Assembly (NCBI GenBank): GCA_018817595.1
Contig: JAHITU010000007.1
Location: 8,775 to 72,774 of the forward strand
Origin: Patescibacteria group bacterium
Lineage (GTDB): Bacteria; Patescibacteriota; Minisyncoccia; Phycocordibacterales; UBA12079
DNA: 64,000 nucleotides
Direction of reading: 5' to 3'
The notes beneath the pieces are model-generated. The model searched no databases and had not been told where the DNA came from. It worked only from the letters and a program-made list of their open reading frames with translations. Of this stretch, positions 46,907-56,310 are shown one piece after another; positions within the stretch are counted from its first letter, which is position 1; each line of letters opens with the position of its first letter. The position numbers and the translations under genes were made by a program.

Positions 46907-47263
46907 ATTGGCTCTATCGTCTAACGGTTATTGGAATTAAAAGCAAATTTCTTTGCTTTTAATCCGGTTCTGAGCGATAGCGAAGAAATGACCGATGTTT
47001 ACGAGGTCATAGGATAAGCCTTCGTTGAAGGCGATGTCTTTGAAATATAGCAGACAATGTTAATTTAAAATATAATATATAGTAATGGCCTTATCGTCTA
47101 ATGGTTATTGGAATTAAAAGCAAATTTCTTTGCTTTTAATCCGGTTCTGAGCGATAGCGAAGAAATGACCGATGTTTACGAGGTCATAGGATAAGCCTTC
47201 GTTGAAGGCGATGTCTTTGAAATATAGTAGACAATGTTAATTTAAAATATAATATATAGTAAT
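46907..47263 (+). repeat. two tandem 181-bp units, each starting with a copy of tRNA-Glu nt 1-22, directly upstream of the intact tRNA-Glu
   Basis: Units at 46907-47087 and 47088-47263 are about 98% identical. Each holds GGC(T/C)(C/T)TATCGTCTAA(C/T)GGTTA plus inverted copies of tRNA segments (GAAGGCGATGTC is the reverse complement of tRNA GACATCGCCTTC). Confidence 0.7.
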
Positions 47264-47335
47264 GGCCTTATCGTCTAATGGTTAGGACATCGCCTTCTCA
47301 AGGCGGCAATCCGGGTTCGATTCCCGGTAAGGTCA
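47264..47335 (+). tRNA. tRNA-Glu (anticodon CTC)
   Basis: Acceptor GGCCTTA/TAAGGTC, D-stem GTCT/GGAC, anticodon loop TTCTCAA, T-loop TTCGATT. Confidence 0.85.
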
Positions 47336-47518
47336 CAAATCAAAAATAACAGTCTTTCTGACTGTTATTTTTTGATTCTAGTGAATCTCCTGTGGAGATA
47401 ATCGAAGGTCGGAAGAAAATCCGAGATTTTCTGAGACGGGGTCGAGAACACTTTGTAAAATTTGAGCAAAGCGAAAAATTTTACTTAGTGATTCGTGATC
47501 GATTCCCGGTAAGGTCAC
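47336..47518 (+). ncRNA. conserved structured element trailing tRNA-Glu; ends in a direct copy of the tRNA 3' end
   Basis: Terminator, CGAAGGTCGGAAGAAAATCC...GAGACGGGGTCGAGAACACTTTG...TTTGAGCAAAGCGAAAAA...ACTTAGTGATTCGTGATCGATTCCCGGTAAGGTCAC. Confidence 0.6.
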
Positions 47519-47811
47519 AAAAAACAAAAACCTACACTTTATCGACCGTCAATAAAGTGTAGGTTTTTGTTTTGTTTTGCAAAAAGTAGGGGTAGCACCC
47601 CTACTTTTTAAATTATAAGATATTGTTGAAAAACTTCATAATTTCTTTATTTTTTCTTTACTGAAACTTCATAATAAATATGTATAAATTTGTAATTAGT
47701 GTGTTCTTACAGAAATGAAAGGAGGTGATATACTATTCTTTTGAGAGTTATCTTAGTAAATATTTTTTCACTAAATTTAAACCTAAATTAAAAAAGACCT
47801 AGGAGGTCAAA

Positions 47812-48246
47812 ATGAAAACTAGAATTAGTTTGATAGTTGGAATTATCTTTTCACTATTGATGTTTGTTGGTGTGAGTTTTTTGCAAGCTGATGTTATTGC
47901 GGCTTATGATACCAATGTAGCCGTTCCTGGTTTAAGTTGGTTGGATCATACTTATGTATGTGTAGATAATTCTTCTAATTGTCGATCTTTTCCAAGTGGA
48001 AGTGCTACAACAGGTGGTTCTGTTGTGACAAGCGGATCTGCTACAGATTCCCAAGTATTAAATTCTTTATGTTATGCTGCGGGTAGTATGACTTATCTTG
48101 TTCAAGGAGTTTGTCATCAACACTCAAACCGTATGTTGTATCCTATTAATAAAGAGTTGGATTCTTCAGTTAATGGATACAGTACTAGTCGTTGGTTATA
48201 TGGTACTTACGGGACAAATTTTTGGTCAATTTACTGTAATTATTGA
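47812..48246 (+). CDS. secreted Cys-rich small protein (signal peptide)
   Basis: Strong RBS AGGAGGTCAAAATG, N-terminal signal peptide, 6 Cys, Gly/Ser/Thr-rich, higher GC than its neighbours. Confidence 0.6.
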   Translation: MKTRISLIVGIIFSLLMFVGVSFLQADVIAAYDTNVAVPGLSWLDHTYVCVDNSSNCRSFPSGSATTGGSVVTSGSATDSQVLNSLCYAAGSMTYLVQGVCHQHSNRMLYPINKELDSSVNGYSTSRWLYGTYGTNFWSIYCNY

Positions 48247-48281
48247 TATCTTCTAACTTATAATTTATAGGAAAAGAGAAA

Positions 48282-48851
48282 ATGTTTAAAATAAATCAAA
48301 TAGTATTTTTTTCAACAATGTTGTTTGTTATTCTTTTTGGTGGTGTTGCATTTGCTCAAAATCAACAATTAGAAATAAGAGATGGTGAGCTTTATCTTTT
48401 AGAAGGTTTAAAAGAAGATTCCAATATTGTTTTCAGAAGACAATATTACAGAGAACAAACAAGAAGTATTTATGAAAATAAAGAGTTGTTTGAGGATAAA
48501 GAACTTCTTCTTGTTAAAGATTTTAGTTTTGCTATAGATGAAGCTCTGGGAGTTGATTTTCCTACAAAAAAGAAAGAGCTTCTTCAGAAATATCAATACA
48601 ATATGTTAAAACAGAAAACTTCCTTTGATAAACTTTACGAAAACGGTTTATTAGATGAAAAGTTATATTTAAGATTTGTTTCTGATATTTTTGAACAAAG
48701 TTTACATGAATCAGCTTATGTTTTAAATGATGAGGAATTTTTCTTGTTATTTTGTATTAACAAAAATCAAATAGACGGACTTTTTTATGGAATTGCGAAT
48801 ATAGGGCGTCTTGATCATGAAAAGCTTGTTAATGATGAAAGAAAAAAATAA
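48282..48851 (+). CDS. secreted hypothetical protein
   Basis: Signal peptide and an RBS. Followed by a terminator at 48888-48910. Confidence 0.55.
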   Translation: MFKINQIVFFSTMLFVILFGGVAFAQNQQLEIRDGELYLLEGLKEDSNIVFRRQYYREQTRSIYENKELFEDKELLLVKDFSFAIDEALGVDFPTKKKELLQKYQYNMLKQKTSFDKLYENGLLDEKLYLRFVSDIFEQSLHESAYVLNDEEFFLLFCINKNQIDGLFYGIANIGRLDHEKLVNDERKK

Positions 48852-48907
48852 AATAAACATTTAATAAATTATTTTTTAACCTCTAGTGTTTGTAACACTA
48901 GAGGTTT

Positions 48908-49273
48908 TTAATCATTTGTAGAAAAACTTAATATAAAGCTCCCAATTATTATGAAAATTAAAGGTATTGTAATCATGACTATACCTATAGGAGATTTTGT
49001 AAATAAAAATAATATATTTTCTATACGAACATTCATAACAATTAAAGCGGATAATCCTGAAAAGATAAATATTTTACCGGCGAGACGAGGACTGTTTTTG
49101 ATAAAAAATAGTGCAATTATTGAAAAAAGTGAAATTATTAAAAATAATATTCCTGTGATAAATTCCTTTGTTTGAACACCCCCAGAAAAAGCATAATAAA
49201 ATAAGCTTTGGAGTGAGAAAATTAAAACACTAAGAATCCCAAATATATATATTAAAAATTTTTTATTTTTCAT
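48908..49273 (-). CDS. small 4-TM membrane protein
   Basis: 121 aa. Four hydrophobic helices. Confidence 0.55.
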   Translation of the reverse strand: MKNKKFLIYIFGILSVLIFSLQSLFYYAFSGGVQTKEFITGILFLIISLFSIIALFFIKNSPRLAGKIFIFSGLSALIVMNVRIENILFLFTKSPIGIVMITIPLIFIIIGSFILSFSTND

Positions 49274-49334
49274 CTAAATAAATTATAACACACATATAAA
49301 ATAGTTAAATATAATTATGGTATAATAAAATTTA

Positions 49335-50690
49335 ATGAAAAAGAGAATAATCATTTTAATATTTGCTATTATAATCCTATTTATTTCTTGGAATATGATA
49401 AGCAGAAATAGTGGTGTTAATTATATTGTTCAAAGTGAACAAATAAAATCATTAAATTGGAATAATGTCGTTCCAGATATAACAGAACCAGTATTTGAAG
49501 AAAGAGAGTTTTTAATAAAACCAGAAGAATATATTGAAATAACACTTTGTGGTAAAAAAGTAGAAGCTGAAAACGTTGTTTTTGGTGGTTTTAGTTTTAC
49601 TAAAGCTTTTGAGAGAATTGTTAAAGAAAATGTTGAGGCCAGTTTTTGTGGAAATGAAGGTAATTTGAATCTTGATTTTTATGATAGAGTTCTTGGTGTT
49701 ATAGTCAAAGAACAGAGATGGAATCAAATAGAAAATAATATTGATTATATTCCTGAAAAATACGGACCAACTAATATGTATGTTATGTCTTTATATTCTA
49801 AGTCTGACAAAAATCAATTGAGTGATTCTTTTAGTCGAACTAGTTTTGTTTATAAATTTGATTTTAATAAAAAAGAGGTTTTATTACAAATGGCTATTGA
49901 TGGAAGTTTCCGCAAAGTAGGTTTGATTAAAGAAAGTGATTTTAATGATTCATTAAAATCACTTTCAGTAGTTGATGAATTAAAAATTCGTTTCAAAAAT
50001 ATTGATAAAACATCAGATATTCAATCAGACCAATCAATTATTTGGTGGAATGATGAGAATGGTTATAATCTTAATTTTCCAGCCAATGAATCATTTTTTG
50101 TAGCAAAAGAAGAAAAGAATCATATTGACCAATCGCTTATTGCCTATGAATATTTTTATAAGGAATTGGCTTTAGTTAAACAAGTATTTACAAACAGAGG
50201 TTTTATTTTAAATAAAAACAATTCTTCTGATGATTTTACAGATAATCGTTTTTATGATTACATTCAAGCCTATGAAAGAGGAAATGAATTATGTGTTGTG
50301 TTGGTTAATTTAGATTGTACTTCATATAGAAGTGGTAATTATGACAAAGCTTGTCATTTAGTTTTGTCTTGTGGAAATTCTTTAGAGGAAGCCCAAATAG
50401 AACAAATCCCTCTTTTAAACGCCTTAGATTATAAAAATAGAAATAATATTGCTATGATTAGAAACCAATTAGGTGATTTTTATGAAGTAATTGTAAGTGG
50501 ACGGCGAGGGGGTTCAACAGCTATTATGAAAAAAGAAGGTGAGAATTACAGAGTTTTATATATAAGCCAAGAAGATCCATTTTGTAGTCTAATAGAAGAA
50601 GAAAATATACCCAATGAAGTTTTAAAAGCATTTGAAATAAATGGTTGTTTTGGTGATAATGGAAGTAATTATAAAAGATTTAATGAGTAG
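49335..50690 (+). CDS. large secreted/membrane-anchored hypothetical protein
   Basis: 451 aa, N-terminal signal anchor, several Cys. Confidence 0.55.
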   Translation: MKKRIIILIFAIIILFISWNMISRNSGVNYIVQSEQIKSLNWNNVVPDITEPVFEEREFLIKPEEYIEITLCGKKVEAENVVFGGFSFTKAFERIVKENVEASFCGNEGNLNLDFYDRVLGVIVKEQRWNQIENNIDYIPEKYGPTNMYVMSLYSKSDKNQLSDSFSRTSFVYKFDFNKKEVLLQMAIDGSFRKVGLIKESDFNDSLKSLSVVDELKIRFKNIDKTSDIQSDQSIIWWNDENGYNLNFPANESFFVAKEEKNHIDQSLIAYEYFYKELALVKQVFTNRGFILNKNNSSDDFTDNRFYDYIQAYERGNELCVVLVNLDCTSYRSGNYDKACHLVLSCGNSLEEAQIEQIPLLNALDYKNRNNIAMIRNQLGDFYEVIVSGRRGGSTAIMKKEGENYRVLYISQEDPFCSLIEEENIPNEVLKAFEINGCFGDNGSNYKRFNE

Positions 50691-50698
50691 AGAATAAA

Positions 50699-51025
50699 AT
50701 GAATTATTTAACTTTAATTGTCGTTGGAATAGCAGGGGTTATTGTAGGGTCTTATTTTGGAATGCAGAAAGGGAATGGTGGAAAGAAAAATATACTTTCA
50801 AAACAAGCTGAAGCTAAGATCGAGAACAAACAAAAAATTTTAGAATTTTTAAAAAATAACGAAAACCTGCCTGCCGGTGAGGCAGGAATCACTAACAATA
50901 ATGTTGAGGAATTATGTTCTGTTTCCAATGCCACAGCAGAAAGATATTTAGATGAGTTGGAAAGGGAAGAAAAATTAGTTCAACATGGTAAAATAGGGAC
51001 AGGTGTATTTTATACGTTAAAATAA
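50699..51025 (+). CDS. TM-anchored winged-helix DNA-binding protein
   Basis: N-terminal TM. C-terminal wHTH (ATAERYLDELEREEKLVQHGKIGTGVFYTL). Contains the in-frame GC-rich palindrome CCTGCCTGCCGGTGAGGCAGG. Confidence 0.5.
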   Translation: MNYLTLIVVGIAGVIVGSYFGMQKGNGGKKNILSKQAEAKIENKQKILEFLKNNENLPAGEAGITNNNVEELCSVSNATAERYLDELEREEKLVQHGKIGTGVFYTLK

Positions 51026-51112
51026 GAACACTTTAATCAATTAACTCAACGAGTTGAGTTAATTAAAAAGGGAAGGATAACTTAAAATATATTAAAAATG
51101 TTAAAATAAAAT

Positions 51113-51748
51113 ATGTTAGTTTTTATTGATGAATCCGGAGATCCAGGATTAAAAATGAATAGCGGTTCAAGTCGGTTTTTTACTATTGCTTTGGTAGTAT
51201 TTGAAGATTATGATGAGGCTACTAATTGTGATAGAAGAATTGAATTATTAAAGAAAGAATTAAGTTGGAGTGATAATTCAGAATTTCATTTTAAGAAAAA
51301 CTCTTTAAGAGTTAGGGATTCGTTTTTTAAAGCTGTTATGCCTTATAATTTTTTCTATTATGGTATTGTCATAAACAAAGATCCTAACAAACTTTATGGA
51401 GAAGGTTTCAAGAATAAATCTTCTTTTTATAAATATGCATGTAGTCTTGTTTTTGAGAATGCAAAAGATAAATTAAGTAAATCAATTGTTGTTATAGATA
51501 AAAATGGAAATAATGAATTTCGTAATCAATTAGCTAAATATTTAAGAAGAAAGATGAACATTGATAAAAAGAAGATTAGAAAAGTTAAGATGCAGAAATC
51601 TGAATCCAACAATTTGTTACAGTTGGTTGATTATGTTGCTGGGGCAATAAATAGATCTATTGTTAACTCAAGAAAAGATTCTCAGGTTTTTAGAAAAATG
51701 CTTAGTCGTAAAGAAATGTATGTTCAAGTGTGGCCAAAAAAAGAATAA
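51113..51748 (+). CDS. DUF3800 family protein
   Basis: N-terminal MLVFIDESGD and C-terminal LQLVDYVAGAI motifs, both characteristic of DUF3800. Confidence 0.65.
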   Translation: MLVFIDESGDPGLKMNSGSSRFFTIALVVFEDYDEATNCDRRIELLKKELSWSDNSEFHFKKNSLRVRDSFFKAVMPYNFFYYGIVINKDPNKLYGEGFKNKSSFYKYACSLVFENAKDKLSKSIVVIDKNGNNEFRNQLAKYLRRKMNIDKKKIRKVKMQKSESNNLLQLVDYVAGAINRSIVNSRKDSQVFRKMLSRKEMYVQVWPKKE

Positions 51749-51954
51749 AAGAAAACCACCGAACCTATCCTTGCGGAACGCAGTGATAAACACTACAGTT
51801 TGGTTCGGTGGCACTTCCTTAATTGAAACTATAACATTTTATATCAAAAAATCAAGTAAACTGTGGATAACTAAAACATTGTAAATAAAATTTAAATTAG
51901 CTCTAAAAGAGCAGAACGGCTCAACGACTTGAGCTATTTAAAATAAATGAAAAT

Positions 51955-52632
51955 ATGAAAAAAATATACTTAAAAATAATATTATGTTTGTTTATTTTTA
52001 TACCTTCTTTTTCTTTAATATCCGCTTCAAGCTTGAATGATTTTGACTTATTTTTAAGTAAAAAAATATATAATGACTGTAAAGACCAAAAAATCAATTT
52101 AAGATCTAATTCTACTTTAGGTATTTTATTAGTGGAATATTTTAATATAGAAAAGATAACACCTGATTTAGAATTTATTTCTATAGAACCTAAACAAACA
52201 AATATAAACACAGTAATAGAATGGATATCTAGATATAAACCTTATGCAACTTATATTAATTACCCCGAAAATCCACAATTATATGAAGGTCTTAATAAAT
52301 TAGGGTATAAATCAACACAGGGTAAAGAGTTTTCTTTTTATTCTGATGGGCTTAATATTTTTAATTGTGGAGGTAAAAATATGGATATTAATGGAACTCA
52401 ATATTTTTGGGATAAAGAACTTATTGAATTACCTAAGATAGAAAATTATTACGATAATAACTATACATTATTTGGTTTAAATATTATTCAAAATGGTGGA
52501 ATTACAATATTTGGAATTACTATTTTATCTTTTAGTATTGTGGGAGGTCTAACCTTTTTATCTATCGGATCACTACTTATTCCTTTTATTAGAAAAAAAT
52601 TTATAGTGATAATAAAACGAAAGGTAAATTAA
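51955..52632 (+). CDS. secreted protein with C-terminal TM anchor
   Basis: Signal peptide and a C-terminal hydrophobic anchor plus KKFIVIIKRK stop-transfer. Confidence 0.5.
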   Translation: MKKIYLKIILCLFIFIPSFSLISASSLNDFDLFLSKKIYNDCKDQKINLRSNSTLGILLVEYFNIEKITPDLEFISIEPKQTNINTVIEWISRYKPYATYINYPENPQLYEGLNKLGYKSTQGKEFSFYSDGLNIFNCGGKNMDINGTQYFWDKELIELPKIENYYDNNYTLFGLNIIQNGGITIFGITILSFSIVGGLTFLSIGSLLIPFIRKKFIVIIKRKVN

Positions 52633-52662
52633 AATAAAAATATAACACCTCAACGACTTGAG

Positions 52663-52875
52663 GTGTTAAAAATAACACAAATAACCCCAAAATCAGATGA
52701 AATTCGAGGAAGTGAGGGAAAATATTTTGAGTTTTTAAAAAGAGGTACGACTTCGGAATTGGTAAAACTAAACAAATTACTAAAGATTGCTGGTATACAC
52801 GTTAAGAAGTCGGACCTCGAAAACTTAAATATTTTCCAGAGGGCTGACGAAGAAGTTCGTTGGTTTTTAGATTAG
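52663..52875 (+). CDS. small hypothetical protein; a degenerate paralogous fragment follows at 52881-52960
   Basis: 70 aa. Downstream fragment ...SKLSEVRGGKKKYLE resembles ...KSDEIRGSEGKYFE. Confidence 0.4.
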   Translation: MLKITQITPKSDEIRGSEGKYFEFLKRGTTSELVKLNKLLKIAGIHVKKSDLENLNIFQRADEEVRWFLD

Positions 52876-53000
52876 GTTGTAAATAACTCAAAATTAAGTG
52901 AAGTTCGAGGAGGTAAGAAAAAATACCTTGAGTCGTATCGGGCATACGACGAAAGGTATTTTTTTGAAACCGACAATGAAATTCCTTAATTTTGGGTTAT

Positions 53001-56000
53001 TTACTTAAGTTCTTTTATTTTTTCGGCTAATAAAGATGTCTCATCATTCCTCTTCGAAATCTTCCCCTTAATCATCACACATTTTTCTTGTTCTAATAGT
53101 TCGGCGAATTCTTCATAGACTTTAGGGAAAACTACCACTTCTAATGACCCACTGAAATCAGACAGTCTCACAAAAGCCATTTTATCTTGTTTTTTCTTGG
53201 TTAAAATTACTTTGCATTCCTCAACTATACCTGCCACCACTGTGGTTACACCCTCTAGCATTTCCTTTTTAACTTTAGATAAATTACTTCGGCTCTTAGA
53301 AAGTTGTTGAGAGAATTTGTCTAAGGGGTGTCCTGAAATATACAAACCTAATAATTCTTTTTCCCAATTTAATTTTTCTTCCATAGTGGCTGATTCTGTT
53401 TTTTCAAGAGTGATTTCTGTCACACTGGTATCTGCTCCGAATAAGGAATCCTGTCCTTGAGGTTTAGAAGCAAAGTCTTTGGAGTATTGTAATAATTCAT
53501 ACATATTGTGAATTATTTGTTTTCTTTCACCCAGTTTATCCATCGCTCCGCACATAGTTAAGGCTTCAAGAGATCTTTTGTTCATATTTTTACCTTGCAC
53601 CCTCTCTAACAAATCTACCAAGGATTTGAATTTTCCGTTTTCTTTTCTTTCGGCAATTATTTCGTTAGCAATTCCTTCACCAAAGTTCTTTATTGTTTGC
53701 AGTCCAAAACGAATGGCTTCATTTCCAGATTCTCCTTTTACAATAGTAAAGTCAGTAAAGGACTCATTGATATCAGGCGGAAGCACCTCGATTTTCAAGC
53801 GTTTACATTCTGTAATTATTTCAGAAACTTTATCCACATCACCCGAATCCGCCATCAATAAGGCAGTCATATATTCAATAGGGAAGTTAGCCTTCATATA
53901 TGAAGTTTCGTAAGCTACTCGTCCATAGCTGGCTGAATGAGCTTTGTTGAATCCGTAGGCAGCGAAAGTTTCAATAGTCTCCCATAGCTTTTGTACAGTT
54001 TTTTGTTCGATACCATGATTAAGACAACCTTTAAAGAATTTTTCTTTTTCCTGTTGCATCATCTCTGGGATTTTCTTTCCCATCGCTTTTCGAAATTTGT
54101 CGGCTTCAGCCCAAGTATAACCAGCAAGGTTCACAGCAATAAGCATGACATCGTCTTGATAGATAATAATTCCATAGGTTGGTTTTAAAATAGCTTCAAG
54201 TTCAGGATGCAGATAGGTTACTTTAGAAGGGTTTTCCTTTCTCTCAATATAGTCAGGAATAAAAGCCATAGGTCCTGGGCGATATAAAGCTACCATCGCC
54301 ATGATGTCCCAAATATCTTTGGGTTTTAATTCCTTTAGATACTGAGTCATTCCTTGTCCGTTCAATTGGAAGGTCCCCAATGTTTCACCTCTGGCTAGCA
54401 TTTCGTAGGTTTTCTTATCTTGTAAATCAATATTATCAAAATCTACATCTATATTATGTATTTTTTTAACTAGCTTAGCTGCATTGGCTAAAATAGAAAG
54501 ATTCTTAATTCCCAAGATATCGAATTTAGGTAGATTAACCACCCCGTCACGATTACCTGTGTACATATCGTACTGAGTAATAATTTTTCCGTCTTTATCG
54601 ACTTGAATAGGGGTGTAATCATCAACTCGAGAAGGGGAGATAAGTACCCCTGCGGCATGGGTAGAAATATGACGGGCACAACCTTCAATTTTTTGAGCAT
54701 ACTTAATTATCTCTTGAACATCTTTATCTGATTTATGTAATTCTTGCAGGTCTTTTTCCATTTCTAAAGCCCGAGCGATTGTCATAGGAAAACCTTGGGA
54801 ACCCATCGGAATTAATTTGGCGATTTTATCTCCAAGGTCATAAGGGAAACCTAAAGCCCGAGTTACATCTCGCACAGAACCTCGAGCCGCCATAGTTCCA
54901 AAAGTCCCGATTTGAGCGACTGCTTTTTTACCGTATTTTTGTCGCATATAATCAATCACATCATCCCGACGAATATCGGCGATATCAACATCGATATCAG
55001 GGATTCCGGGGCGCCCAGGGTTCATAAATCGTTCAAAAGGAAGTTTTAATTCAAGAGGGTTAACCTTAGTAATAAAGTTTAAATAGGAAACTAGAGAACC
55101 AGCAGCTGAACCCCTAGTATTGGTAAAAATACCCACAGAACGAGAGTGATTAATTAAATCAGAAACAATTAAGAAATATGAAGAATACCCCTTGTCTTTA
55201 ATAATTTTTAATTCATATTCAATTCTATCCAAAACCTCTTTTGATTCTGGTAATCCTCTTTTAGAAATTCCTTCAAAAGTCTTTTTTCTTAAGTAGGAAT
55301 TGTAATTTTCTCCATCAGGAATATTTATATCAGGGAAATACCAAGAATCAATATCTAGTTCGACATTACATTTATCTACTATTTTAGAAATATTCTCTAA
55401 GGCTTCGGGAGTGTCTTTAAAATATTTATTAGCAGTTTCTTGATCAATAAAAGAAAAATCTTCTTCGTCATTTCTGTATTTTGAGTTAGAGGACTGGATA
55501 GACATTAAAATGTCTCGAGCTTTTTTATCGTCAGCATGCATATAGTAAACATCTTGGCAGGCTACCAATTCTAAATTCTCGTCCTTGGAAAAATCAATGA
55601 CTTTCTTTTTTAATTCTGTTTGACCTTCAATTTCTGGATGATGCACAATTTCCATATAGAAATTAGGGAAGGTTTTTCTGTACCAGTCTGTGCTTTCTTT
55701 GGCTTTTTCAACATCACCGTATTGCAGGGCTTTGAGGGCCTCTCCTCCAAATTGAGGCATTATACAAATTAGACCTTCTTTAAATTTTTCCATTAATTCT
55801 CGGTCTATTCTCGGTCGGTAATAAAAACCGTCAAGATATGACTTACTGACTAATTTAATTAGATTTTTGTAACCTTGCTCATTTTTGGCCAAAAGGATTA
55901 AACGGTTGGAACGATTGTCGATTCCAGGTCTTTTGTCATGTCGGGTTTTTAAAGCTACATAAAAGTCTACTCCTAAAATAGGTTTGATTTCTTGTTTGTG

Positions 56001-56165
56001 GCATTCTTGGTAAAACTCAATAGTCCCATACATATTCCCATTATCAGTAATGGCTAAAGCAGGCATATTATATTTTTTTGCTTGGGAAACCAATTCCTTT
56101 ATTTTGGGTAGTGCATTTAAAAGACTATAGTGACTGTGAGTGTGTAAATGAGAAAATTGTTTCAT
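53001..56165 (-). CDS. dnaE: DNA polymerase III alpha subunit
   Basis: PHP domain start MKQFSHLHTHSHYSLL, polymerase core, C-terminal OB fold. Start set at the second Met. Confidence 0.9.
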   Translation of the reverse strand: MKQFSHLHTHSHYSLLNALPKIKELVSQAKKYNMPALAITDNGNMYGTIEFYQECHKQEIKPILGVDFYVALKTRHDKRPGIDNRSNRLILLAKNEQGYKNLIKLVSKSYLDGFYYRPRIDRELMEKFKEGLICIMPQFGGEALKALQYGDVEKAKESTDWYRKTFPNFYMEIVHHPEIEGQTELKKKVIDFSKDENLELVACQDVYYMHADDKKARDILMSIQSSNSKYRNDEEDFSFIDQETANKYFKDTPEALENISKIVDKCNVELDIDSWYFPDINIPDGENYNSYLRKKTFEGISKRGLPESKEVLDRIEYELKIIKDKGYSSYFLIVSDLINHSRSVGIFTNTRGSAAGSLVSYLNFITKVNPLELKLPFERFMNPGRPGIPDIDVDIADIRRDDVIDYMRQKYGKKAVAQIGTFGTMAARGSVRDVTRALGFPYDLGDKIAKLIPMGSQGFPMTIARALEMEKDLQELHKSDKDVQEIIKYAQKIEGCARHISTHAAGVLISPSRVDDYTPIQVDKDGKIITQYDMYTGNRDGVVNLPKFDILGIKNLSILANAAKLVKKIHNIDVDFDNIDLQDKKTYEMLARGETLGTFQLNGQGMTQYLKELKPKDIWDIMAMVALYRPGPMAFIPDYIERKENPSKVTYLHPELEAILKPTYGIIIYQDDVMLIAVNLAGYTWAEADKFRKAMGKKIPEMMQQEKEKFFKGCLNHGIEQKTVQKLWETIETFAAYGFNKAHSASYGRVAYETSYMKANFPIEYMTALLMADSGDVDKVSEIITECKRLKIEVLPPDINESFTDFTIVKGESGNEAIRFGLQTIKNFGEGIANEIIAERKENGKFKSLVDLLERVQGKNMNKRSLEALTMCGAMDKLGERKQIIHNMYELLQYSKDFASKPQGQDSLFGADTSVTEITLEKTESATMEEKLNWEKELLGLYISGHPLDKFSQQLSKSRSNLSKVKKEMLEGVTTVVAGIVEECKVILTKKKQDKMAFVRLSDFSGSLEVVVFPKVYEEFAELLEQEKCVMIKGKISKRNDETSLLAEKIKELK

Positions 56166-56310
56166 ATCACTATTATATATCATTGATACAAAAAGTAGAA
56201 ATTTGATAAATGTTTATAAGATTAAAGAATAATAAGGCTCAAAAAACTTCATAATTTCTTTATCTTTTCTTTATTAAAAATTTATATGTAATTTATTAAA
56301 ATATAAGCAT

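Follow-up and report, generated by a model that had tools for sequence, protein, structure and literature searches.

Do the genes that lie between a transfer RNA (tRNA) gene and dnaE in a Patescibacteria-group genome form one acquired toxin or defence module, or are they a collection of separate parts? The locus in question is the block of approximately 5.6 kb between tRNA-Glu(CTC) and dnaE on contig JAHITU010000007.1, which belongs to a Campbellbacteria-like metagenome-assembled genome. The whole stretch of 64 kb that was analyzed is referred to as the window (mean guanine-plus-cytosine (GC) content ~31%), and its variable region runs from 47.5 to 53.0 kb. The left landmark of this region is tRNA-Glu(CTC) (47264..47336, plus strand), which was found with ARAGORN and with the Rfam tRNA model (62.6 bits), and the right flank is dnaE (53001-56183, minus strand), taken from the list of open reading frames (ORFs). 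An earlier, sequence-only reading had described eight ORFs in the block, here called O1 to O8, as a horizontally acquired toxin/immunity or anti-phage module. The eight ORFs are present between tRNA-Glu and dnaE, and seven of them are credible as genes; O1 to O7 correspond to KKH36_01535..01565 (MBU1046445-51) in the NCBI annotation. The earlier observation of the block is largely right and its accessory label is supported, but the block is a mosaic and not one module. Our full reading, to which we give a probability of roughly 0.6, is that the region is a lineage-specific mosaic of at least three independently mobile units at a hot spot of a Campbellbacteria-like genome of the candidate phyla radiation (CPR), and not one operon. 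Unit A would consist of a secreted effector, O1-O2, with O3 as its partner, and unit B of a DUF3800 gene with a small RNA (sRNA).

The block is accessory, as judged by synteny. Five species-representative genomes returned by a scan with DnaE (L001-L005) were used as relatives, and the closest DnaE sequences, 71-82% identical, come from Campbellbacteria/Paceibacterota-type genomes. The gene order L32-dnaE-tRNA-Glu-...-murJ-O-antigen-ligase-like is kept across L001-L005, with tRNA-Glu beside dnaE in each of them. TBLASTN searches with the eight block proteins against the syntenic regions gave zero matches at E ≤ 1e-3 and nothing convincing when the threshold was relaxed to E ≤ 1, so that the block has no counterpart in L001-L005, in agreement with the earlier label. 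In L005 the whole gap between dnaE and murJ is only ~880 bp. The other relatives carry different cargo at this junction: a single unrelated 297-aa membrane protein in L001, several small ORFs and an RlpA-like protein in L002, and a peptidase-like protein, an ABC transporter and an RlpA-like protein in L004. The junction of L003 contains a 571-aa large serine recombinase (L003:13541-15256, minus strand), the 3' end of which overlaps tRNA-Glu antisense; together with the small element-like genes that come after it, it represents an element integrated at this tRNA. Because the content differs in every genome compared, the junction is a cargo hot spot. No paralogues of the block proteins were found within the window, and near-identical copies of two of them are present on an 18-kb contig (P0006, P0011).

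Unit A starts with O1 (47812..48246, plus strand), a 144-aa Sec-type secreted protein which corresponds to the N-terminal domain (DHTY / GVCHQxxNR / YGTYG) of a two-domain family. Its hydrophobic leader, its strong ribosome-binding site (RBS; AGGAGG) and its elevated GC content (0.352 vs. 0.263 and 0.238 for its neighbours) had all been recognized before, but the protein contains five Cys residues and not six. O2 (48282..48851, plus strand) is a 189-aa secreted helical protein and represents the C-terminal domain of this family. A hydrophobicity scan detected N-terminal leaders on O1, O2, O4, and O7, and a C-terminal transmembrane (TM) segment in O7, consistent with the previous description of O2 and O4 as secreted and of O7 as secreted and C-terminally anchored. 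O3 (48908..49273, minus strand) is a 121-aa membrane protein with four TM segments which is convergent on O2, exactly as described earlier. Between O2 and O3 a bidirectional intrinsic-terminator hairpin (48872..48909; T-run, AACCTCTAGTGT-TTGT-AACACTAGAGGTT, T-run) was read from the sequence.

Word-indexed searches returned only three relatives of O1 and one of O2. A profile of O1 was searched with HMMER over 1.84 billion representatives and matched 486 clusters at E ≤ 1e-3, including 42 at E ≤ 1e-10. Among the best 152 matches, 57 are short proteins, of which at least 27 have an N-terminal hydrophobic leader like that of O1; 80 are proteins of 201-330 aa with the domain at the extreme N-terminus, nearly all of them (77/80) leaderless, and 15 are longer multidomain proteins. 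Of the 95 proteins longer than 200 aa that carry the O1 domain, 41 are matched in their C-terminal half by a hidden Markov model (HMM) built from O2 and three homologues. At the sequence level, O1 and O2 thus each make up one half of what is usually a single-chain protein. Split pairs, with an O1-like and an O2-like gene side by side, were also found in L010 (twice), L012, L025, L027, L028, and L030, and two of these (L025 and L027) are high-GC viral contigs. Alignments of the O1 family show the invariant residues D-H-T-Y, GG, G-V-C-H-Q-x-x-N-R-x-L-Y, G-Y-x-x-S, and Y-G-x-Y-G, and judging from these the domain looks catalytic (Cys/His). No match to O1 or O2 was obtained by profile searches in Pfam, NCBIfam, PHROGs, PADLOC, and PDB. 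A faint Tox-GHH2 match for one paralogue in L010 (E = 0.074) and kinesin matches in the PDB search were judged to be spurious, and no search supports a permuted NlpC/P60-LRAT fold, an HNH fold or a phospholipase A2 for the CHQ motif. Profile searches of the individual ORFs did place O6 in the DUF3800 family, but O1, O2, and O7 in no known family.

The membrane partner of the secreted pair recurs as well. O3 is 31% identical (E = 1e-15) to the product of a convergent four-TM gene of L012, and a small multi-TM gene lies within 1 kb at six of the eight loci of the secreted type, including L010 (twice), L013-16, and L030. O1/O2 cassettes occur elsewhere without O4 to O8. Family members were found in phages and next to integrases, a resolvase, transposases, and restriction-modification (RM) and toxin-antitoxin (TA) genes. 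In L010, three O1-like paralogues are arranged around genes for a serine recombinase, DUF3800, GmrSD, AAA/SMC, an EcoRI-type methylase, and Phage_rep_O. The loci in L013-16 adjoin a DDE transposase, those in L028/29 sit between a phage integrase and a resolvase with PIN, and the locus in L030 adjoins IS1595 fragments. RM, HigB, and conflict-system domains surround the P0048 locus, and the P0056 locus follows a STAND NTPase and adjoins WYL and type I-C cas genes. Four IMG/VR contigs carry members of the family, in one case beside terminase genes, and further members are present in Actinobacteria and high-GC prophages. The toxin/immunity proposal made earlier is supported in part: the O1-O2-O3 layout recurs in mobile and defence contexts, but it does not extend to eight genes, and a toxin/immunity function appears plausible for O1-O3 only.

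Pore-forming colicin operons have a similar layout, with the toxin gene followed by a convergent immunity gene that encodes a small inner-membrane protein with 3-4 TM segments. One example of a source on this layout is reportedly the work of Cascales et al. from 2007. Unit A shares with these operons a gene for a secreted protein, a convergent gene for a four-TM protein of ~120 aa and a bidirectional terminator between the two. The likeness extends to the presence of the O1/O2 family on mobile elements and of receptor-binding-type lectin domains in some members. It is an analogy of layout only: no relation in sequence or fold exists, the effector is split into two Sec-secreted chains, and there is no lysis gene. 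The lectin domains belong to larger members of the family. P0078 carries an N-terminal B-lectin region that resembles putidacin L1 and matches NF033557 with E = 3.9e-29, which is below the curated cut-off. WP_182624588 of Rhodococcus opacus carries a ricin/beta-trefoil array, and other larger members carry PPC or propeller-like repeats. Bacteriocins of the lectin-like type (putidacin L1/LlpA) differ from the family in that they have no O1/O2-like domains, and the proteins in the window have no lectin domain.

Further features were observed at the loci that carry this family. The Patescibacteria island of L010 contains a LOOT RNA (RF03000; L010:8931-9058, minus strand; 85 bits). The genes called at positions 1694-3095 of L028 (a contig of GCA_964456745.1) have in-frame stops under table 11, which suggests that the host of this O1/O2 cassette uses an alternative genetic code (a lineage of the code 25 or code 4 type). 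In L022/L023 (1300-6809), the gene for a 602-aa family member with propeller-like repeats immediately follows that for a 1203-aa STAND (AAA_16/NACHT-like) NTPase, and genes for a WYL regulator and for type I-C cas3 and cas5 are adjacent.

Unit B consists of O6 (51113..51748, plus strand) and a structured RNA downstream of it. The earlier assignment of O6 to DUF3800, a defence-associated family, is firm: the Pfam model (PF12686) is matched with 66.2 bits against a cut-off of 21 (E = 6.9e-18) over profile positions 1-148 of 149. Further matches are PADLOC PDC-M04A (8.5e-10), PHROG 9243 (1.5e-9), and, weakly, PADLOC DUF3800_VII (3.3e-4). O6 is the only block protein with a significant match in PADLOC-DB 2.0, and PDC-M04A is only a candidate defence family; O1-O4 and O7 have no match in that database. 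A DE motif in the N-terminal part and a QxxD motif in the C-terminal part have been described for DUF3800 (PMC7736814). FIDESGD (D6, E7), D129, and LLQLVD (Q170, D173) are invariant across five DUF3800 homologues. The DUF3800 fold is reported to be RNase H-like (PMC10910872, PMC12669027), and the fold ascribed to O6 is taken from this literature.

The RNA was overlooked in the sequence-only reading. It is a DUF3800-IX sRNA (RF02968) at 51751..51812 on the minus strand, which matches the full Rfam model (positions 1-67) with 47.2 bits against a gathering threshold of 36.8. It is convergent on O6 and begins 3 nt past the stop codon of the gene. Its 11-bp outer stem and a U-tract, which follows the stem on the minus strand only, form a terminator, and a sigma-70-like promoter (51828..51855, minus strand; TTGATT, a 16-nt spacer with TG, TATAGT) lies 7-10 nt upstream. 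A metagenome scan identified four loci (L017-L020) that encode DUF3800 proteins 57-72% identical to O6. In L018, L019, and L020 the RNA (44.5-50.3 bits) occupies the equivalent position on the same strand, and that of L017 is cut off by the contig end yet aligns, so that L017 is a probable fourth cassette. None of the other block genes was found at L017-L020. The L018 cassette lies between glycosyltransferase genes and the L020 cassette between housekeeping genes; glycosyltransferase, HtpX-like, and MiaB-like genes are found in these neighbourhoods. The DUF3800 gene with its RNA therefore forms a cassette that spans only ~0.8 kb and occurs without the rest of the block. RNAalifold predicted the 11-bp outer stem to enclose two hairpins, and 14 of the 21 pairs show compensatory double changes across four sequences. 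The RNA is thus real, conserved and encoded on the minus strand.

Since the structure begins so close behind O6 and its outer stem could end plus-strand transcription, it might instead be only the plus-strand terminator or 3' untranslated region (UTR) of the DUF3800 mRNA. We consider this hardly probable. The Rfam model and the U-tract fit the minus strand only, as do several conserved G-U pairs, which would be A-C mismatches on the plus strand. The minus-strand promoter is present at the right distance in three loci, with a TTGACA box at the equivalent site in L018 and L020 in place of the TTGATT of the window, and in L020 a separate hairpin lies between the DUF3800 gene and the RNA.

DUF3800 genes are associated with eleven unrelated RNA motifs (I-XI), which have been left unexplained and for which placement on the opposite strand is possible (Weinberg et al., 2017, PMC5737381). 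In having an adjacent structured RNA above gathering, with a terminator-like stem and a U-tract on the opposite strand, the cassette in the window agrees with the DUF3800/DUF3800-IX pair. Nothing essential differs from the DUF3800-I to -XI pairs; the cassette described here has its own sRNA promoter and recurs in unrelated genomic contexts. DUF3800 proteins have also been described as RNase-H-fold nucleases in type VII retrons (Mestre et al., 2020, PMC7736814), as accessory proteins of some Cas12a2 systems (PMC10910872), and in some V-A2 and VI-F loci (PMC12669027). Unit B resembles type VII retrons and the tetratricopeptide repeat (TPR)-DUF3800 proteins of Cas12a2, Cas12a3, and VI-F systems in pairing a DUF3800/RNase-H-fold protein with a non-coding RNA (ncRNA) in the setting of a conflict system. 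However, no reverse transcriptase (RT) domain and no msr/msd were found in the block, the Rfam match is to DUF3800-IX and not to a retron ncRNA, and O6 keeps the QxxD motif that the retron-linked DUF3800 clade is said to lack (PMC7736814). The window also differs from the Cas-associated systems in having no Cas genes and no TPR domain. In comparison with type III TA systems (ToxIN-like), the RNA is single-copy, downstream and convergent, and no upstream tandem repeats on the same strand are present. As RT, Cas genes, and tandem RNA repeats are lacking, O6 and its RNA are a DUF3800/DUF3800-IX pair and not a type VII retron or a type III TA system: a new CPR member of a known but unexplained pair. 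Judging from sequence comparisons, a defence role is plausible for the DUF3800 gene and its RNA only. A limited literature search found no publication on PDC-M04 or on Patescibacteria bacteriocins.

These results bear directly on the possibility that the eight ORFs are one horizontally acquired toxin/immunity or anti-phage module which was integrated at tRNA-Glu as a unit. All ORFs except O3 are on the same strand and closely spaced, the block is absent from the relatives, a fragment of the tRNA is repeated nearby, and the palindromes described below are specific to the block. Moreover, the L010 island holds O1/O2-like cassettes and a DUF3800 gene together. The DUF3800 protein of L010, however, is not significantly similar to O6 (26% over 107 aa, E = 0.16), and its gene lies 7 kb from the cassette. 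The parts were found separately at every other locus examined, and terminators separate the units in the block. The tRNA repeat does not help this proposal either. The copy of the tRNA-Glu 3' end (47491..47528, plus strand) is 84% identical over 38 nt with an exact core of 19 nt (47501-47519; 19/19, 0 expected), but it encloses just 182 nt and not the block, and no tRNA 3'-end copies were found near 52.6-53.0 kb, even with three mismatches. By its sequence, the repeat resembles a scar of the att type, left by an integrative element that is either miniature or since lost. The locus has several features of tRNA-linked islands, namely the position of the block immediately 3' of the tRNA, the tRNA 3'-end repeat, the absence from relatives, and the recombinase at the same site in L003; it differs from them in the short interval enclosed by the repeat, and in that the window has neither an integrase nor a compositional signature. 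Acquisition of the block as one coherent module is therefore improbable, and that part of the original proposal is not supported.

A more serious alternative is that O1-O5 and O7 are ordinary, fast-evolving and vertically inherited CPR envelope genes at a junction under low constraint, and that O3 is an unrelated membrane protein. In favour of this alternative, orphan proteins that are secreted or membrane-bound are abundant in CPR genomes. The composition and codon usage of the block are host-like, there are no mobility genes in the window, and the relatives carry orphan membrane or secreted proteins and RlpA-like proteins at the junction. O4 (49335..50690, plus strand) also fits. This 451-aa N-terminally anchored protein has a conserved, extracytoplasmic C-terminal domain of ~240 aa with four invariant Cys residues in the alignment, and its 14 homologues among 5.8e9 sequences are all from Patescibacteria or metagenomes. 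The homologue in L008 adjoins LysM/DPBB (RlpA), Mur ligase, and penicillin-binding protein genes, and the homologue in L009 adjoins TetR and patatin genes. An AlphaFold2 (AF2) model of O4 has a predicted local distance difference test score (pLDDT) of 85-95 for residues 210-445, and a Foldseek search with this model found nothing in PDB and BFVD at E ≤ 1e-3. O5 (50699..51025, plus strand), which starts 9 nt past the O4 stop codon, is a 108-aa protein with an N-terminal TM segment (residues 4-22). The earlier description of O5 as a TM-anchored winged-helix protein is confirmed for the TM segment, but the winged-helix domain relies on matches that are below threshold in Pfam, PADLOC, and PHROGs alike: HTH_24 (E = 0.0048, 16.9 bits vs. 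a cut-off of 21.9), the SoFic C-terminus (5e-4), and a PHROG DNA-binding family (4e-4). We regard the domain as probable. O5 is not conserved together with O4. O7 (51955..52632, plus strand), a 225-aa protein with an N-terminal leader and a C-terminal TM anchor, is an orphan (a cluster of one) with no family or viral match in the libraries searched, and scans of viral contigs with O4, O5, O6, and O7 found no relatives. We regard O4, O5, and O7 as lineage-specific envelope proteins. For O1 and O2 the envelope explanation is less suitable: the O1/O2 family is not CPR-specific but is found in phages, Actinobacteria, and high-GC prophages, beside integrases, transposases, RM, and TA genes, and it is multi-copy in L010. 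The DUF3800 gene with its RNA is clearly not an envelope function. As an account of the locus, the envelope alternative is possible but on balance rather unlikely.

Several observations weigh against our own reading of the region as a mosaic of mobile units with an effector and its partner. A domain search and TBLASTN searches with the L003 and L010 recombinases found no integrase, recombinase or transposase in the window and no remnant of one, and no att repeats bracket the block. The GC content (0.279 vs. 0.309, sd 0.037; p = 0.10) and the synonymous-codon likelihood (p = 0.45) of the block are within the host range, and only the GC content at third codon positions (GC3) is slightly lower (p = 0.02); contrary to what the sequence-only reading had led us to look for, composition does not mark the block. 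Because the composition is host-like, acquisition is read only from the absence of the block in fairly distant relatives (DnaE 71-82% identity), and an ancient vertical origin with loss elsewhere is possible. With regard to unit A, the O1 domain has no relative of known function that the sequence searches could detect, and its AF2 model (pLDDT 41) is unusable. Signal peptides and membrane neighbours are both lacking in the phage-borne and most single-chain family members, so that the immunity reading may be wrong or may apply to the secreted subfamily alone. As membrane proteins are common in CPR genomes, O3-type adjacency is partly expected by chance. With regard to unit B, we know of no experimental function for any DUF3800 protein or RNA.

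The hairpins that punctuate the block were analyzed in relation to a further explanation of its modular structure. The motif CTCAACGA[G/C]TTGAG occurs at 51045, 51920, and 52649; no other match exists in the 64 kb when one mismatch is allowed, and none was found in 100 shuffles. The hairpins reported before are thus real and restricted to the block, but the loops are CGAG/CGAC tetraloops on CTCAA/TTGAG stems and not AACGA loops, and copies 2 and 3 are part of a longer direct repeat. Copy 1 (51040..51071, core CTCAACGAGTTGAG at 51045-51058) lies 55 nt upstream of the DUF3800 start, copy 2 (51915..51946, core 51920-51933) 22 nt upstream of O7, and copy 3 (52644..52675, core 52649-52662) 11 nt downstream of O7. 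Copies 2 and 3 form a 32-nt direct repeat (84% identity) that brackets O7. In principle, the CTCAACGA[S]TTGAG hairpins could be attC-like sites, and the DUF3800 gene with its RNA and O7 could be integron-type cassettes: the three palindromes lie at gene boundaries and only in the block, copies 2 and 3 bracket O7 exactly, and GTTAAAA follows copy 3. An attC site, however, comprises ~57 nt or more and has R''/L''-L'/R' boxes and extrahelical bases, and a cassette array is accompanied by an IntI integrase or, as a CALIN, has at least two such sites, whereas the hairpins in the window are perfect palindromes of 14-26 nt with stems of only 5-8 bp, a 4-nt loop and no extrahelical bases. There is no integron integrase, and a search of 20 loci (L001-L020), among them the other DUF3800 and RNA cassettes, did not find the motif. 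Because of size and shape the attC explanation was rejected as highly improbable. The palindromes have no plus-strand U-tracts, unlike the canonical terminators elsewhere in the region, and they could be operators (e.g., for the winged-helix protein O5) or junction repeats.

The right end of the block had been interpreted as a small ORF followed by a degenerate copy of itself. This interpretation was not sustained. O8 (52663-52875, plus strand) has a GTG start inside hairpin 3, lacks an RBS and was not called by NCBI, and its DNA is part of a structured region (52663..53004) that was delimited by folding and by alignment to the dnaE flank of L005. The sequence 52640-53010 folds at -124.7 kcal/mol compared to -70.7 kcal/mol for shuffled sequences (z = -11.1). 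BLAST and alignment identified two plus-strand copies (52679-52715 and 52876-52915) of the L005 dnaE 3' flank (L005:13163-13199), which are inverted relative to dnaE of the window, as this gene is on the minus strand. A 20-nt inverted repeat (52879-52898 / 52985-53004) encloses the dnaE terminator hairpin (52918-52964), which is thereby nested in a long hairpin (52877-53004). O8 was therefore discarded as a gene, and from its sequence features it is very probably non-coding; what had been read as an ORF and its degenerate copy is the duplicated, inverted dnaE 3' flank within a structured non-coding region. The orientation of tRNA-Glu relative to dnaE is opposite in L003, L004, and L005 compared to the window and L001. 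Together with the inverted flank copies, this points to an inversion with duplicated breakpoints at the junction.

Some additional features were found at the left end. The exact copy of the tRNA 3' end is followed by a hairpin with a perfect 26-bp stem and T-runs (47521..47573), which was detected by an inverted-repeat search and is likely the displaced original terminator of the tRNA, or a bidirectional terminator. The stretch from the att-like scar to O1 also holds, at 47581-47609 and 47706-47734, a further GC-rich hairpin (GTAGGGGTAGCACCCCTAC) and a promoter-like site followed by a strong AGGAGG without an ORF behind it. Upstream of tRNA-Glu (46909-47262), the window contains two 177-nt tandem units, each of which opens with the first 22 nt of tRNA-Glu. 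Three relatives (L004:13373-13512, L003:13353-13482, and L002:16310-16450) each keep approximately 140 nt of this unit, in one copy immediately upstream of tRNA-Glu. The unit folds into a tRNA-like acceptor/D-arm and a long hairpin, with 44 predicted pairs of which seven show compensatory changes, and it was matched neither by Rfam nor by ARAGORN. It is a candidate conserved tRNA-like ncRNA or leader that was duplicated in this genome.

For the mosaic as a whole we infer the following scheme, including each of its biochemical activities and the immunity role. O1, which looks catalytic, and the helical O2, each with its own Sec leader, would reassemble outside the cell into a Cys/His-dependent effector that acts on an envelope or membrane target. 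O3 would be the membrane partner of O1/O2 and most likely a self-protection (immunity) protein. The DUF3800 protein, with its presumed RNase H fold, would bind its cognate RNA of ~75 nt and would serve in conflict or defence as a nuclease gated or guided by the bound sRNA. O4/O5 and O7 would be orphan CPR envelope proteins that were carried along, and the right end may be non-coding debris from the inversion that also flipped tRNA-Glu. A bolder version of this scheme, which we put forward tentatively, is that the O1/O2 family is a new and widespread class of released effectors or toxins, built around a Cys-His domain (DHTY...GVCHQxxNR) that would cooperate with a helical partner domain, and occurring as single chains, as lectin fusions, and as split Sec-secreted pairs with a membrane immunity protein. 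Such effectors would be carried by phages and integrative elements and would be used by episymbiotic CPR bacteria against hosts or competitors, and the DUF3800 protein with its sRNA would be an RNA-gated, RNase-H-like defence nuclease.

If these functional proposals fail, the locus is a typical CPR variable region with orphan envelope genes. In either case the lineage has a hot spot for cargo at the dnaE/tRNA-Glu/murJ junction. Eleven RNA motifs associated with DUF3800 have awaited a functional explanation since 2017, and the pair described here is a minimal example of 0.8 kb, from promoter to terminator, in a reduced CPR genome; if unit B functions as proposed, the cassette could serve as a compact model. 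The split and doubly Sec-secreted O1/O2 pair with its membrane partner is a variant of effector-plus-partner modules, from a family of ~500 clusters which has no characterized relative and none in Pfam or PDB, and in which the two halves are tied together by fission and fusion. Should O1-O3 prove to be a toxin/immunity system, few candidate antagonism modules would have been described for Patescibacteria before it.

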